IMG/VR virus record: IMGVR_UViG_2579778804_000005 | Direction: 5' to 3' (one strand) | DNA from: a virus | Taxonomy: Duplodnaviria; Heunggongvirae; Uroviricota; Caudoviricetes | Length of the DNA: 7,355 bases | Shown here: in pieces, positions 9-7,117 of the stretch | Position numbering within the stretch: position 1 is the stretch's first letter | How the letters are laid out: every line of letters starts with the position of its first letter | Notes under the pieces: model-generated | Database searches by the model: none | What the model was told of the DNA's origin: nothing | Seen by the model: the letters and a program-made list of their open reading frames with translations, nothing else | Translations under genes and position numbers: made by a program

Positions 9-1838
9 TTACCCGCCGTTGGATTGTCCTGATAAGCTGGTTAATGTTAATGATTTCAAGAAGCTATCCCGACTTGCTCTCGCTGTAAAATCCACATAAT
101 CGCTTAATCTGGATGTGTCAGAATTAATAGTAAGAGGAACCTCTGTTACCACTTCAAATGTAGGATTCAGATTAAACACAGGAGATAAATTATAAGCCGG
201 AGTTGTCATTGCAAGATTATTTAAAGCACCCTGTTTGAGATTGGTTATCGGTGCTTCGCTGACTGACATTTTTACATCTGACACAGAAGATTTATCATCG
301 AAAAGCAATCCCTTAATCGTATTAAATAGAGAATGACTATTATCAGGTGTAGTTGTTGCAGTGCCAGCGCCTTTATATTGATCAGGAACGAGATTAGAAA
401 GATTCTGTTTCATTCCTTCATTGCTTAATGGCGGTGCATCTCCCATATTTTTCTGAATAGCTTCCGTCTTATCATCATTACGATTAAACCAGTTTACAAT
501 CTTCATAATAGCTTCAAAGAGACTTCCTGTAGCTTCTCCCAGCTTCGTAAAATACGGAGTGAGATTAGAAAGGTTTTTCATAAACTCTTCCGTTACTTTT
601 GGATCGAGAGATTTCATAAAGCCGTCTACGAATGCTACTTGTCTTGCATCAGAAAGCTGTGAAAGCTGTCTGTTTAGTTCTCTGAATTTAACAATAGAGT
701 CTTGCTGTGTTTCTGTTAGCCATTTTCCAGAGGCTTTTTGCTGATTAATACTTTCTTGTACATCTTTAACGGAACGTTGCCAATATTTTGATGTAAGCAT
801 CAAATCATCGCCCAGGTCTTCTAAACGTTGTCCAATTTGGGAGTCTGAAAACCCTTTTTTCATCATTCCATTAACAGCCTTAGAAATTAATCCAGCCGGA
901 TTATCAGCAAATTTTTTAAGGTCGCTTTTGTTAATAACACCGATGTTTAGAAGTTCATTAATAGCGTTATCACCGCCTTTCCATTCAGATTTTCCTTTCT
1001 TGTCTTTCACCAATTCAGCTTCACTGTAAGATTTTGCGGCACGTTCCCTAACATCTTTCATCTGATCCAGGTATTTCCTAGCCCCTTGATCACCCTGGAG
1101 GCTATCGATCCCGTGTCTATAGGCCCATTCTGTAAGGTTGTACATCTGGTTAACGTCTACACCGCCAAGCCTTGCACGTTGAATTAATTCTCCTTGTGTC
1201 TCTGCGTTAGCGAAGCTATTAGCCATAAATTCAGCGGTTTTGCTTACAGCCATCACGCCAGCAGCAGCCGTAGCGCCTCCAAATAACAGAGCGCCCATAG
1301 TGGCGGAATTCCCTGATCCTCCTCCCTTAACGGGGGCTAATTGAGCTTTTCTGTTGCCATTAATCTTACGTTGTTGTTGTTGTAGGCGTTTCATCTGGCT
1401 ATTCATACGTGCAAGCGAGATAGCCCCTTGCTCATATTGTTTTGCTATCTCTCTAGCCTGTGCAATAGCTTTGTATTGTTCCGCTACAGAGAGGCGGTGC
1501 ATTGCACTGATAGAGCTTGACACATCAAGGAGTTTTAATTCTGCTTTCTCTTTACGTGCTGCTATTTGTTGCTGTTGCCTTGCCTGTGCTCTTGCTGCGG
1601 CAGCTTGTGCTCTTTGATTCTGTTTTTCTGTTTTGGCTTTCTGTTGAGCAATCTTATCTACTTCACTTTGTGCTTTCTTATAGCCTTTAGTGACATTATC
1701 AAATCTTAATTTAGCTGGCTTGATATTTTCTGCGAATTCCTTTAAGCCTGTAATAGAGTCTTTCGCTTTTTTCAAGCTGTCTTTATCTACACTAAATGTT
1801 ACTGTGTTCTTAATTTTAGAAGTGTTAATTTCTAACAT
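9..1838 (-). CDS. Large virion-associated protein (609 aa) with a Q/A/R/K-rich coiled-coil-like segment and a Gly/Ala-rich hydrophobic segment; possibly tape-measure-like or an internal/ejection protein
   Basis: Complete ORF: ATG at 1838-1836, TAA at 11-9, AGGGGA ribosome-binding site upstream. The protein has a low-complexity stretch (QNQRAQAAAARAQARQQQQIAARKEKAELK) followed by GGGSGNSATMGALLFGGATAAAGVMAV. It is the longest gene and lies downstream of the capsid gene. Being a real gene is well supported; the function is inferred from composition and position only. Confidence 0.5.
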   Translation of the reverse strand: MLEINTSKIKNTVTFSVDKDSLKKAKDSITGLKEFAENIKPAKLRFDNVTKGYKKAQSEVDKIAQQKAKTEKQNQRAQAAAARAQARQQQQIAARKEKAELKLLDVSSSISAMHRLSVAEQYKAIAQAREIAKQYEQGAISLARMNSQMKRLQQQQRKINGNRKAQLAPVKGGGSGNSATMGALLFGGATAAAGVMAVSKTAEFMANSFANAETQGELIQRARLGGVDVNQMYNLTEWAYRHGIDSLQGDQGARKYLDQMKDVRERAAKSYSEAELVKDKKGKSEWKGGDNAINELLNIGVINKSDLKKFADNPAGLISKAVNGMMKKGFSDSQIGQRLEDLGDDLMLTSKYWQRSVKDVQESINQQKASGKWLTETQQDSIVKFRELNRQLSQLSDARQVAFVDGFMKSLDPKVTEEFMKNLSNLTPYFTKLGEATGSLFEAIMKIVNWFNRNDDKTEAIQKNMGDAPPLSNEGMKQNLSNLVPDQYKGAGTATTTPDNSHSLFNTIKGLLFDDKSSVSDVKMSVSEAPITNLKQGALNNLAMTTPAYNLSPVFNLNPTFEVVTEVPLTINSDTSRLSDYVDFTARASRDSFLKSLTLTSLSGQSNGG

Positions 1839-1852
1839 TTAAAATCCCCTTA

Positions 1853-2056
1853 TTAATCATTTTTACCACCTTCTTTACTTAAGAAATGGTGTAGAGCCTG
1901 ATCAATACTCTCGTTTAGTCTGAACATACGGGCTTTTACTCCTTCATATGGAACATCTAGGAGAGAACATAGATATTTCAGATTTAACAATCCTCTAGAA
2001 TCATTAGCATCTAAATGTACGTGTACACCATTTTTTGATTTCAAAATCACTTCCAT
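1853..2056 (-). CDS. Hypothetical small protein (67 aa)
   Basis: ATG at 2056-2054 preceded by a GAGGTGA ribosome-binding site; TAA at 1855-1853, 14 nt before the next gene's ATG. Same strand and tight spacing as its neighbours. No recognisable motif. Confidence 0.55.
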   Translation of the reverse strand: MEVILKSKNGVHVHLDANDSRGLLNLKYLCSLLDVPYEGVKARMFRLNESIDQALHHFLSKEGGKND

Positions 2057-2079
2057 ATTTTAATCACCTCTCAAAATTT

Positions 2080-2123
2080 AAAAATAAATAAAAAAAAGGC
2101 GAAGCGTGAATACACGCCACGCC
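2080..2123 (-). terminator. Rho-independent terminator immediately after the capsid gene
   Basis: Hairpin at 2098-2123 (ggcgaagcgtgaatacacgccacgcc): inner 5-bp stem gcgtg/cacgc with a 4-nt loop, outer ggcg/cgcc stem across a 2-nt internal loop. On the minus strand it is followed by a long U-run (plus-strand A-run 2080-2097). It starts about 20 nt past the capsid stop codon (2145-2143). Confidence 0.6.
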
Positions 2124-2142
2124 TCTAATACACGTTAAAATA

Positions 2143-3171
2143 TTATTTCACAGTGATTTGAACGGAGAAGCCAACGCCGTGGTTTACAACCATCTGGCTA
2201 TTCTCTGTAACAACGTTAACAGCATCACCACGAGAAGATTCATAGCTATAGCTGTACACCTCAGCAGGAGCGGTATTAATCAGTTCAAAGGTGCTGGAAG
2301 CAGCCCCGTAGATGTTCTGATATACATTAGAGCCTTTAGCAAACTTCGGAACCGCTACAGCGTCTGCGGTCATATGTGCAAGGTGTAGCGGATCTACCAG
2401 TTTAATAACATCAATGTTAGTTCCTGGAATAGTGAACGCTGTCACCCCTGGCAGCAGGTCACGACGCTGATACACAACGTTCCCTTCTTCCAGTGGGCTT
2501 ACATACTGGAATGCGTTTGCCATACCCGCAGAGAATCGAATTGCAGAGAAGGCTTCCGGCTTACAGAAAACAACAATACGCTCTACAGCAGCCGCCTGGC
2601 TTTGTGCTTTCTCGATAATGTCAGTAGCAATCTGATCAAATTCTTTAAAAATCTTCGTGGTGTCAGTGCTGGAAGCGTTCACAGTGGCTTTCATAGCTGA
2701 TACGTTAAACAGCTTGCCCCACTCGATAAGAACATCGTCAGTTTTCGGGGTATGTGTCTTGCCAGAGAACAAAGAAGCCGCCAACACGCTCTCTTTTGTA
2801 CGCTGATACGCTACGTGATGTTTAGCAACATAGTCAGCATAAATATCAGTGAGTGTTTCCTGAAAATCAGTGCCAGGCTTACGCTTGCCTTGCACGTCCT
2901 GCGGTTTGATCAGGTCTTCCCTTAAAAAGTACGGGATTTCGACCAGCCATTCTTTACCTTGTTCTCGCTTAGTAACATTGTGTTCAGAAGAGAAACGAGA
3001 GGTTTCTTTGTTGAACAGAGATTCGTTAGTTTCCACCAGTTGGCTAACAGCTACTTTATGAGAACTAACGCCCACCGGATCAGTGAAGTCGAGAGTAGAA
3101 AGCAGATAGTTTCTAGTGCTATGCGCAGAGAACAAAGGAGCTAAATCAACGTAATCATTACCTAGAATCAT
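2143..3171 (-). CDS. Major capsid protein (342 aa), HK97 fold, resembling the T7 gp10 family
   Basis: Complete ORF: ATG at 3171-3169, TAA at 2145-2143, followed by an intrinsic terminator. By recall, ERIVVFCKPEAFSAI...MANAFQY...PLEEG resembles T7 gp10A DRVFYCDPDSYSAIL...MPNAANY...DPEKG, and PKFAKGSNV resembles FPANKGEGNV. Length matches gp10A (~345 aa). This is a recalled comparison, not a computed alignment. Confidence 0.62.
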   Translation of the reverse strand: MILGNDYVDLAPLFSAHSTRNYLLSTLDFTDPVGVSSHKVAVSQLVETNESLFNKETSRFSSEHNVTKREQGKEWLVEIPYFLREDLIKPQDVQGKRKPGTDFQETLTDIYADYVAKHHVAYQRTKESVLAASLFSGKTHTPKTDDVLIEWGKLFNVSAMKATVNASSTDTTKIFKEFDQIATDIIEKAQSQAAAVERIVVFCKPEAFSAIRFSAGMANAFQYVSPLEEGNVVYQRRDLLPGVTAFTIPGTNIDVIKLVDPLHLAHMTADAVAVPKFAKGSNVYQNIYGAASSTFELINTAPAEVYSYSYESSRGDAVNVVTENSQMVVNHGVGFSVQITVK

Positions 3172-3915: not shown

Positions 3916-4105
3916 AAGGAAAAAAGAGGTAATAATGACACTTAAGGAGGAGGAGAAGCGGGGAGCGGAGATTTTACTCCCCTTTAATGACAGGAAGAAT
4001 TTTTAATATCGAACCAACAAAGGAAAAATAATCACCCCTATATAATTATATTAACATACAATATATGAAATGTCAAGATATTTTACAACTTTTTTGTTGC
4101 TTTTT

Positions 4106-5269: not shown

Positions 5270-5923
5270 TTAAAATGGAATATCAAAGTCATCATACACA
5301 TTTGGGTAATGCTTAGAAAAATATGCCTCAATACCATTTGGTAGCTTTAACCTGTGCTTATAGGCTAACGATGTTGCAAATTCTATAAAGGATGCTCCTG
5401 CTGTTCTGGTGTTTTTCTGCTGGCAGATAAGAGAGGCAAAATTCTCTAACACATCCTCCTCATTATCATTAGCTACCTTTTCATTTGATGAAACAGGTGT
5501 TTCTTCCGTCTCCCACGGCAAAGGCGCATCCCAATCATCAAGAACATCAAAAGAAGACTCTTTATTATCTTCTGTAGGGGGAAGCTGTTCAGGAACAGCT
5601 TTAACGGTAGCTTCTTGTTGTGTTTTGGCTTCTTGTCTAGCTTCTTCTTGTGGAATATCTACCACTTGATAGACATTAGAACTTCCTGGTCGTGCATCTT
5701 TTATAATTAATCCCATTTCGAGCAATTTCTTAACCCTTTCCTCTGCTGCTCTTGGTGTTATGCCAAAAACATCGCCTATCTTAGCGTAAGAGGGAAATGC
5801 ACGATCAAACCCTTTCAGATAGCAGTAAAGGTTTTTAGCACTATCTGTAAATTTATGCCCGTTTACTTGGCTTATTTTTAGAATCCACATAGGAACTTTT
5901 ACAAATTGTTCTTCATTAATCAT
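5270..5923 (-). CDS. Replication-initiator / replisome-organiser-like protein (217 aa): N-terminal winged-HTH, acidic linker, C-terminal DDFDIPF tail
   Basis: ATG at 5923-5921 with an AAGGAGA ribosome-binding site. The N-terminus (VPMWILKIS...YAKIGDVFGITPRAAEERVKKLLEMGLI) is typical of HTH replication-initiator and phage replisome-organiser N-domains. The middle is acidic and Pro/Glu-rich. The last residues NVYDDFDIPF were checked codon by codon at 5302-5273, with TAA at 5272-5270. Confidence 0.6.
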   Translation of the reverse strand: MINEEQFVKVPMWILKISQVNGHKFTDSAKNLYCYLKGFDRAFPSYAKIGDVFGITPRAAEERVKKLLEMGLIIKDARPGSSNVYQVVDIPQEEARQEAKTQQEATVKAVPEQLPPTEDNKESSFDVLDDWDAPLPWETEETPVSSNEKVANDNEEDVLENFASLICQQKNTRTAGASFIEFATSLAYKHRLKLPNGIEAYFSKHYPNVYDDFDIPF

Positions 5924-5974
5924 TAAAAATCTCCTTATAAATCACGCTTAATGCGCTACTAAAGTGAATGAGGA

Positions 5975-6142
5975 TCACTTACCCTTTTTTTGTTTGATGT
6001 TCTCTGCTGCTTCAGTAATGATTTCTAACATCAAATCACTGACCATAATTTGCCTTTTCTTGGCTTCAGCAAATAAAACCTTGAAGATTTCAGGGTCAAC
6101 GTGTAGGTAAGTACGCGGAATTGGTTTCTTGGTTTCGCTCAT
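5975..6142 (-). CDS. Ribbon-helix-helix (CopG/Arc/MetJ-type) DNA-binding protein, 55 aa, absent from the ORF track
   Basis: Manual translation: ATG at 6142-6140 with an AAGGAGA ribosome-binding site, TGA at 5977-5975. Product MSETKKPIPRTYLHVDPEIFKVLFAEAKKRQIMVSDLMLEIITEAAENIKQKKGK shows the classic strand-helix-helix pattern (TYLHVDPEIF... then ...SDLMLEII). It lies 19 nt after the 62-aa gene and 51 nt before the replication gene. Confidence 0.6.
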   Translation of the reverse strand: MSETKKPIPRTYLHVDPEIFKVLFAEAKKRQIMVSDLMLEIITEAAENIKQKKGK

Positions 6143-6161
6143 AGTTTTCTCCTTCTATTCT

Positions 6162-6460: not shown

Positions 6461-6489
6461 ATTATTACATATAAAGAAACATTTGTCAA
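6461..6489 (-). promoter_or_regulatory. Sigma70/SigA-type promoter with an extended -10, reading toward the 62-aa, RHH and replication genes
   Basis: On the minus strand: TTGACA (-35, plus 6489-6484), a 17-nt spacer, then TGtAATAAT (extended -10, plus 6469-6461). The predicted transcript start is about 100 nt upstream of the ATG at 6350. Confidence 0.45.
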
Positions 6490-7015: not shown

Positions 7016-7076
7016 AAGTAGATAAAGTAAGATAAGTAAGTAAGATAACTAAGATAGATAAGATTAATAAGATCAG
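7016..7076. repeat. Low-complexity GATAAG/TAAGAT-rich tract
   Basis: About 60 bp built almost entirely from GATA(A/G) and TAAG units (gataaagtaagataagtaagtaagataactaagatagataagattaataagatc). No ORF on either strand. Confidence 0.5.
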
Positions 7077-7117
7077 AATTCTCTTTCGGTGTCGCCTCTG
7101 GCTTTTCCACCGAAAAC

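Follow-up and report, generated by a model that had tools for sequence, protein, structure and literature searches.

A tail tape measure gene of the phi92 type in a chromosomal island of Escherichia coli, a probable satellite of virulent myophages

The stretch of DNA analyzed here (7,355 nucleotides, henceforth the window) stems from IMG/VR record IMGVR_UViG_2579778804_000005, assigned to the Caudoviricetes, and is 100% identical over its whole length to the chromosome of Escherichia coli 89-3156 (NZ_CP027366.1). Among 5,426 complete E. coli genomes, 721 contain matches to the window, and 280 of these cover at least 80% of it. Besides 89-3156, strains NC101, BEN2908 and MRE162 are examples of island carriers. 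The window belongs to a 12.3-kb insertion, the island, which is bounded by direct repeats with the 19-nt core TGGTGCCGATAATAGGAGT. One copy of this attachment site (att) repeat overlaps the 3' end of a tRNA-Thr gene, the other adjoins a gene for a tyrosine integrase. The gene of interest encodes a protein of 609 amino acids and is preceded by a ribosome-binding site (AAGGGG) 8 nt 5' of the start of the open reading frame (ORF). A first-pass annotation had described a Q/A-rich coiled-coil block, a Gly/Ala hydrophobic segment and a Q-run originating from (TTG)4 at positions 1371-1382, all of which are present in the protein. It had also noted the gene order, i.e., a capsid gene, one small gene and then the ORF under study, and this order is likewise found, with all three on the minus strand (Table 1). 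Judged by its sequence and by its downstream neighbour, the product is a genuine tail tape measure protein (TMP) of the phi92-type family.

The tape-measure assignment, which the first-pass annotation had offered as a guess, was substantiated by a match to phrog_16051 ('tail length tape measure protein') with an E-value of 1.9e-52, in which residues 127-609 of the protein align with positions 195-659 of the 660-position profile. The only real match among solved structures was Phi92_gp134 (PDB 21vq_V, 659 aa; E=1.9e-37), and the matched stretches, comprising residues 1-68, 148-455 and 568-609 of the island protein, are collinear in the two proteins. According to cryo-electron microscopy, gp134 is the trimeric TMP of phage phi92, and its residues 631-656 are resolved inside the baseplate (PMC13450770). 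By tblastn, the gene was detected in 134 phage records at about 34-35% identity; most of these are Escherichia phages, and named members of Justusliebigvirus and Phapecoctavirus are among them. A Foldseek comparison of the structural model with BFVD placed a phage protein of 653 aa first (E=1e-17), and an entry annotated 'Tail tape measure' was matched at E=5e-4. The same search against the PDB returned nothing significant, only helical-bundle matches with E-values of at least 0.2, and no match was obtained in Pfam, NCBIfam or PADLOC. For the central domain, a fold known from enzymes or from other proteins was considered and rejected in view of the negative Pfam and NCBIfam searches and the Foldseek PDB result. 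The family is small; among 1.84 billion proteins, only 72 representatives at 50% identity were found, and its full-length members comprise 578-668 aa. Comparison with E. coli variants of the gene yielded dN/dS values of 0.12-0.24, i.e., purifying selection. These values together with full-length homologues in several enterobacterial genera and in phages establish that the ORF is not a chance frame.

The resemblance to gp134 extends over the whole length of the protein and includes the Gly/Ala segment and the central domain, but it is unevenly distributed. A pairwise alignment shows identity at all but one of the 23 N-terminal residues (22/23) and at 29 of the N-terminal 40, and the first 87 nt of the gene share 86% identity with phi92 DNA. 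The TMPs of sister islands agree with the first 40 residues at only 12-26 positions, so that the N-terminus appears to track the local helper phage rather than the satellite lineage. A C-terminal motif (LTL..SGQS..GG) is also kept, with the island protein ending in ...LTLTSLSGQSNGG and gp134 in ...LTLQLSSGQSSTGG. This part of the island protein corresponds to residues 631-656 of gp134, which sit in the baseplate, and was predicted with low confidence by AlphaFold2. Identity in the central domain amounts to about 28-31%. In total, the island TMP is 50 residues short of gp134 (609 versus 659 aa); it is devoid of a Gly/Ser/Pro linker and of a charged stretch of about 46 aa, and it is the Q/A-rich block that holds this deficit. 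The genomic settings differ as well: gp134 resides in a phage, where a Phage_TAC_15 chaperone gene lies upstream of it, whereas the island gene resides in a bacterial chromosome and has no such gene upstream. Both are directly followed by a gene for a tube initiator, gp135 or its homologue.

With a 17-sequence alignment as input, AlphaFold2 predicted helices spread over residues 19-167 and 197-464 at a mean pLDDT of 61. Confidence was high for long helices within the Q/A-rich block (residues 44-111, 118-136 and 142-167, pLDDT 78-93) and for the mostly helical residues 210-390 (pLDDT 76-93), and it was low for the hydrophobic segment and the C-terminal 200 aa. The predicted picture is thus that of an extended helical protein with an internal hydrophobic segment, as expected for the TMP family. 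Structure prediction and profile searches, both recommended by the first-pass annotation, agree on a TMP, with long helices between residues 44 and 167, fold matches to phage TMPs in BFVD and a tape-measure family, though no Pfam family, among the profiles. Within residues 51-100, 24 of 50 positions are Q or A, interspersed with many K, R and E residues. The hydropathy maximum of the entire protein coincides with GALLFGGATAAAGVMAV (Kyte-Doolittle 1.6 over 19 aa, peak at residues 180-198). A G/A/L-rich segment occupies the same alignment position (columns ~270-300) in 17 of 17 family members, of phage as well as island type, and a role in membrane insertion may be assumed by analogy with general TMP biology. 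Most of the invariant columns of the family alignment fall into the central domain (residues ~210-450).

The tetrapeptide QQQQ occurs twice, at residues 88-91 and 153-156. For the second run, the coding sequence is CAACAACAACAA, which reads as (TTG)4 on the plus strand, and it had been suggested that this repeat could allow in-frame length variation. This suggestion found no support. In an alignment of the protein with 120 close homologues, QQQQ at residues 153-156 was invariant in all 121 sequences. Close variants do range from 603 to 616 aa, with indels at residues 172, 281-283 and 516 and at the C-terminus, i.e., outside the repeat. Slippage at (TTG)4/(CAA)4 was therefore rejected for these sequences, and tail-length variation driven by slippage is not supported.

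The genes surrounding the TMP gene provide further information. The next gene in the 3' direction, located just outside the window (locus L001, 9262-9975), encodes a protein with 61% identity to phi92 gp135 that matches PDB 21vq_N (gp135) with an E-value of 1e-78. The gp134-gp135 order of phi92 is therefore repeated in the island. The same arrangement, with a gene for a tube initiator matching PF21821 (Dit_like) directly after the TMP gene, is present in related islands. In phi92, gp135 is the hexameric tube initiator, gp123 a cement protein and gp124 the T=13 capsid protein (PMC13450770). The capsid protein of the island matches Phi92_gp124 in the PDB (E=5e-7) with 22% identity, and its best matches in the phage collection searched reach only 23-26%. 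Accessions are WP_028985907 for this capsid protein, WP_028985906 for the TMP and WP_024176008 for the tube initiator. The gene preceding it, for a protein of 120 aa, occupies the position that gp123 has before gp124 in phi92. No similarity of the 120-aa protein to gp123 was detectable by sequence. Nevertheless, its predicted structure (pLDDT 65, pTM 0.59) yielded Foldseek matches with a probability of 0.99-1.0 and a TM-score of about 0.5, and the top six PDB matches were all chains of 122-146 aa from capsid reconstructions of phages Sf14, Bas63 and PhiTE. On the strength of this model, the protein is probably a capsid decoration or cement protein.

Table 1 Features of the window that bear on the tape measure gene and its neighbourhood (aa numbers refer to the encoded protein).
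Feature	Position	Strand	Basis
TMP gene, homologue of phi92 gp134	9..1838	-	ORF; ATG start; 609 aa
N-terminal segment, TMP aa 1-46, close to the TMP of the presumed helper phage	1701..1838	-	alignment with phi92 gp134
Q/A-rich charged helical (coiled-coil-like) block, TMP aa 44-167, with (CAA)4 run	1338..1709	-	AlphaFold2 and composition
Gly/Ala-rich hydrophobic segment GALLFGGATAAAGVMAV, TMP aa 182-198	1245..1295	-	hydropathy and family alignment
Conserved central domain, mostly helical, with WKGGD hairpin, TMP aa ~210-450	489..1211	-	family alignment and AlphaFold2
C-terminal segment, TMP aa 580-609, ending ...LTLTSLSGQSNGG	12..101	-	aligns with gp134 residues ~629-659
Conserved 67-aa ORF directly upstream of the TMP gene	1853..2056	-	same position in all related islands
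Terminator-like hairpin between capsid gene and 67-aa ORF	2101..2125	-	9-bp stem, 5 GC pairs, then T run; consensus match only
Major capsid protein, 342 aa, HK97 fold, Phage_cap_E	2143..3171	-	Pfam PF03864, E=7e-14
Probable capsid decoration/cement protein, 120 aa	3190..3552	-	AlphaFold2 (pLDDT 65, pTM 0.59) and Foldseek
Replication-initiator-like helix-turn-helix protein (217 aa) and 55-aa ORF shared with Justusliebigvirus	5270..6154	-	phrog_270/391, E=9e-11

The 67-aa ORF is 33-54% identical across related islands, and its family gave weak Pfam matches only, all of the helix-turn-helix (HTH) type (Sigma70_r4_2, wHTH, HTH_17). A function as tail assembly chaperone was considered and rejected, as BLASTP and hhalign comparisons with phi92 gp133 proved negative. 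Taken together, these results make the product look like a small DNA-binding protein and not like a tail chaperone. The hairpin between the capsid gene and this ORF may act as an attenuator setting the ratio of capsid to tail-core expression, which would fit the large gap in copy number between capsid and tail-core proteins. No Pfam or PHROGs family for a portal, terminase, protease, sheath, tube, wedge or fibre was matched by any ORF of the island. The layout had been noticed beforehand as unlike that of a standard siphovirus, and rightly so: the gene is part of neither a siphovirus nor a complete phage but of an integrative island, and the odd gene order is explained by the small set of structural genes present there (decoration-like protein, capsid, TMP and tube initiator), all of them related to phi92-type myophages.

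Several stretches of the island are connected with phi92-type phages at the DNA level. These phages are virulent, have genomes of about 150 kb and are annotated without a lysogeny module. Between positions 5916 and 6154 (239 nt), the window agrees with phage muut at 99.6% identity, and the protein of 55 aa encoded there does not differ from muut gp095 (100% identity). Positions 5578-5962 show 90-95% DNA identity to phages Mt1B1_P17 (90%) and BI-EHEC and encode the N-terminal HTH part of the 217-aa initiator-like protein, the phage homologue of which is longer (332-367 aa). Such common DNA (window 5570-6154) suggests recent exchange between the island and Justusliebigvirus or related phages, and the initiator-like protein possibly mimics an origin-binding protein of the helper. 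A further 46-nt stretch (ATCGGGGGGCGCTGAAAATCGCGTTAAGCACTTCTCGCAA...; L001 18873-18918), located outside the window 8.9 kb into the island and conserved in other E. coli islands, is 93.5% identical to positions 318-363 of phi92, where the left terminal repeat (343 bp) has its inner boundary. As a possible copy of helper DNA, this stretch is a candidate site of packaging or of recognition by the terminase. As an aside, records labelled Campylobacter jejuni also appeared in the comparisons. 'Campylobacter phage A150', 'C3' and 'A145' (MG065639.1 and others) are Justusliebigvirus genomes, and identity, E-value and score to the island TMP and tube initiator are the same as those of phi92. The Campylobacter host labels are probably wrong.

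Other features concern replication and expression. Iteron-like tandem repeats of 18-23 nt, belonging to several families, are found at L001 17565-17974 (e.g., TAACAGAATTCTGTGGGGGTGTC, 6-7 copies), within 3.6 kb poor in ORFs that separate the early genes from tRNA-Thr; they look like the iterons of a replication origin. A degenerate copy lies at window positions 7071-7093. The two best sigma-70-like promoters (TTGACA, 17-nt spacer, extended -10) are both on the minus strand, at 6461-6489 upstream of the early gene block and at 4048-4076, where a gap of 345 bp lies upstream of the structural module. Overall, promoter-like matches are no more numerous in the window than in shuffled controls. No k-mer or block conserved across islands that could represent a late-promoter motif was found upstream of the structural module. 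No known defence system was recognized, with PADLOC assigning none of ten island proteins to a defence family.

Relatives, found in part by a genome scan with a 6-sequence TMP alignment, show that the island is one member of a family. The shared gene order comprises ORFs of 91, 135 and 120 aa, a gap, a 70-aa ORF, the decoration-like protein, capsid, an ORF of ~65 aa, TMP, Dit_like and integrase. It recurs in contigs of Buttiauxella, Citrobacter, Phytobacter, Kluyvera and Enterobacter as well as in metagenomic contigs. The TMP homologues in this gene order are 29-39% identical to the protein studied here. The decoration-like protein family is also represented in Klebsiella, Leclercia and Cronobacter. 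In the cases checked, TMP length depends on context: the island proteins measure 596-625 aa, whereas those in phage context, i.e., flanked by Phage_TAC_15, terminator and sheath genes, measure 642-659 aa. Taken more broadly, phage TMPs range from 634 to 668 aa. In the 17-sequence alignment, it is the long proteins that contain the additional linker and charged stretch. A distant relative (L037; Logan contig SRR7500800_3305; 14,065 bp) encodes a TMP of 599 aa, has capsid and Dit_like genes, and carries genes for a ParA-like ATPase and an integrase. Its ends overlap by 30 nt, and it therefore assembles as a circle; this circle may be such an element in excised or plasmid-like form. In two strains (NZ_AP042483.1 and NZ_CM166344.1), the match to the capsid gene is split by an insertion sequence of the IS3 family (IS600), such that the capsid gene is annotated twice; the element has thus been inactivated in some lineages.

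No other gene of the module diverges as fast as the TMP gene. When genera are compared, identity amounts to 29-35% for the TMP and 53-63% for the capsid protein; within E. coli, it is 87-88% compared with 94-99.6% for the neighbouring genes. Some E. coli islands, as seen in the comparison with L016 and L017, carry a divergent allele of the central part of the TMP only (residues ~210-420, window ~580-1210). In this block, dS reaches 1.1-2.6 as opposed to 0.05-0.23 in the flanks, and protein identity is 73%. The donor was another satellite-type TMP, not a phage TMP, which points to a mosaic mode of evolution for the tape measure gene.

The att repeats together with the integrase, the small number of virion genes and the DNA links to phi92-type phages give the island the anatomy of a satellite with a phi92-type helper. 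We consider it probable, though some way from certain, that the TMP gene belongs to an integrative satellite of about 12.3 kb that resides at the 3' end of tRNA-Thr and parasitizes virulent phi92-type myophages (Justusliebigvirus, Stephanstirmvirinae). Upon infection by such a helper, the satellite would express its own capsid and decoration-like proteins, presumably for a small head; with 12.3 kb to enclose and P4 as the model, such a head would be about T=4. Beyond the terminator-like hairpin, the 67-aa protein, the TMP and the tube-initiator homologue would be produced. In long-tailed phages, polymerization of the tube starts from the TMP trimer together with the hub and the tube initiator, and the length of the TMP sets that of the tail. 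Three copies of the satellite TMP would dock with their conserved C-terminus in a baseplate hub built by the helper, together with the satellite tube initiator, and the two satellite proteins would take the place of gp134 and gp135, giving rise to chimeric tails. Helper tube and sheath would then polymerize around the extended TMP to a length dictated by it. With 1.5-1.6 Å per residue, a TMP shorter by 50 aa predicts a tail that is about 7-8 nm shorter, which at a tube ring rise of about 4 nm would be roughly two of 24 rings. The tail of phi92 consists of 24 tube/sheath rings (PMC13450770). With its helper-like N-terminus, the TMP would remain able to fit the neck, tail-completion or chaperone proteins of the helper, and helper-compatible termini matter because no chaperone gene was found in the island. 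In phage 80alpha, residues 1-37 of the TMP attach to the tail completion protein immediately below the end of the DNA, and the C-termini attach to the tail tip (PMC11661146); by analogy, the N-terminus of the island TMP may contact a tail completion protein. At infection, ejection of the TMP would precede that of the DNA, and the hydrophobic Gly/Ala segment of the TMP would help to form a conduit through the membrane.

A number of points weigh against a satellite that builds its tails in this manner. As no ORF of the island matched a Pfam or PHROGs family of tail assembly chaperones, the TMP would need the chaperone of the helper. The upstream ORF is HTH-like and unlike phi92 gp132 and gp133, whereas homologues in phage context follow Phage_TAC_15. 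With only 22% identity between the capsid protein and gp124, co-assembly with the portal and scaffold of the helper is not obvious. The Gly/Ser/Pro linker of gp134 may not be helical, and the predicted shortening of the tail is therefore uncertain. Excision, helper dependence, particle formation and incorporation into virions are all steps that we infer. Finally, the 12 IMG/VR loci all lie in contigs with numeric-ID UViG names, which we take to be provirus calls in isolate genomes; read in this way, they are uninformative on packaging.

In principle, the helper-like ends and the diverged middle of the TMP can also be explained by a different main function, namely that of a decoy or dominant-negative protein, which enters and poisons helper tail assembly by imposing a wrong length or defective ejection and thereby protects the bacterial population instead of giving rise to infectious satellite particles. 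Fast divergence within the module and recombination would fit an arms race of this kind, and interference with tail assembly is known in defence: both Tai systems (PMC11364771) and Rta of PLE11 (PMC12987554) are directed at the TMP or at tail assembly. However, the gene is always linked to those for capsid, decoration-like protein, tube initiator and integrase and to the replication module, which fits particle production; PADLOC returned no family match; and the TMP of PLE satellites is structurally incorporated and needed for efficient transduction (PMC12987554). We regard the decoy explanation as unlikely, with the addition that poisoning helper tails and building particles are not mutually exclusive, so that one protein could possibly do both.

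A decaying remnant of a larger phi92-like or other myophage, with the TMP gene as a relic, would account for the small number of structural genes, the 3.6-kb ORF-poor stretch and the IS insertions in the capsid gene of some strains. It is at odds with the nature of phi92-type phages, which are virulent, large and lack an annotated lysogeny module, and with a compact gene set and order that is kept across six other genera at 29-63% protein identity. This synteny, purifying selection on the TMP, intact att sites and integrase, and a 14,065-bp relative that assembles as a circle render the remnant explanation very improbable. Hardly any credence is left for an internal, ejection or scaffolding protein of a satellite head, the other option named in the first-pass annotation. 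In its favour are the location of the gene shortly after the capsid gene and a long charged helical region and a hydrophobic segment, which proteins of that kind also have. It is nevertheless not needed, given full-length collinearity with a TMP whose C-terminus sits in the phi92 baseplate, the tube-initiator homologue as the next gene just as in the phage, and no similarity to the phi92 scaffold gp122 in a tblastn search against the structural region of phi92.

Assuming a satellite that provides its own TMP, the closest counterpart in the way of working, as far as can be read from genes, would be the PLEs, Vibrio cholerae satellites of the lytic myophage ICP1. PLEs encode a TMP, a chaperone (TAC) and the baseplate hub BhuB, and TMP and hub replace the phage versions in virions, as documented for PLE11 by western blot and mass spectrometry (Nature 2026, PMC12987554; earlier version PMC11838301). 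The resulting chimeric tails are 10 nm shorter, and the TMPs of PLE and ICP1 comprise 582 and 677 aa, respectively, with an identity of only ~20% (PMC12987554/PMC11838301). PLE11 additionally produces Rta, which blocks the phage TMP (PMC12987554). The island resembles PLE in that a satellite of a virulent myophage, a putative one in the case of the island, encodes its own TMP and a central baseplate or tube-start protein, both diverged from their helper homologues, and in that the TMP is shorter than that of the helper (582 versus 677 aa in PLE, 609 versus 659 aa here). On the other hand, host, helper and gene set are unrelated, PLE has a chaperone and none is recognized in the island, and PLE remodels the coat of ICP1 with TcaP, whereas the island encodes its own capsid and decoration-like proteins. 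A relationship between the two TMPs at the sequence level is unlikely.

Phage-inducible chromosomal islands of the capsid-forming kind (cf-PICIs) share with the island that they are integrative enterobacterial elements which provide an HK97-fold capsid protein of their own and take the rest from a helper. They also bring their own portal, protease, head-tail adaptor and connector, and terminase, none of which was found in the island with Pfam and PHROGs. Moreover, cf-PICIs by definition take over whole tails, and the corresponding SatelliteFinder model treats tail genes as 'forbidden' (PMC10085698), although putative tmp genes have been reported in some of them (PMC12987554, Extended Data Fig. 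10). The island, with its TMP and tube initiator, departs from this definition. Because it has tail genes and is devoid of portal, protease, adaptor and terminase, it is not a cf-PICI. EPIPs, satellites of the Mycolicibacterium prophage HerbertWM, contain capsid and TMP genes as well and alter tail length (bioRxiv 2025, PMC12822802). They differ from the island in their actinobacterial host, their temperate siphophage helper and their longer, variable tails, and their gene set additionally includes terS, an adaptor, a stopper, a scaffold and a serine integrase. P4-like satellites are defined by the psu/delta/sid capsid-size module and an alpha primase. No ORF of the island matched a Pfam or PHROG family for any of these, and its replication gene encodes a lambda-O-like HTH initiator (phrog_270/391) and not a P4 alpha primase. 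By gene content, the island is thus neither a cf-PICI nor P4-like nor a classical PICI.

The view until 2025 was that satellites take over whole tails; for PLE, the assembly of chimeric tails with a TMP of its own was then demonstrated. A satellite-encoded TMP is hence a recently established concept. What appears undescribed is the family of islands, the group of helpers and the combination of a private head with a partially private tail core. In the full-text literature searched, with subscription-only papers outside its scope, neither a satellite of Stephanstirmvirinae phages nor the accessions of the island proteins are mentioned. The odds are about even for the broader proposal that undescribed satellites, widespread among Enterobacteriaceae, hijack phi92/rV5-type myophages by means of a private small head and a chimeric, shortened contractile tail, and so form the E. 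coli counterpart of PLE and ICP1 with a more extensive private virion module. With tail genes being 'forbidden' in current satellite finders, this class of islands would be missed by them. If the proposal is true, the chimeric-tail strategy would also be in use in E. coli, by a common island directed against phi92/rV5-like phages, which are widely isolated and are candidate therapeutics against encapsulated and pathogenic E. coli. The island would then be a possible cause of strain-specific resistance to these phages and a warning that they may mobilize chromosomal islands, and it would offer a tractable E. coli model for the control that satellites exert over tail assembly and tail length.

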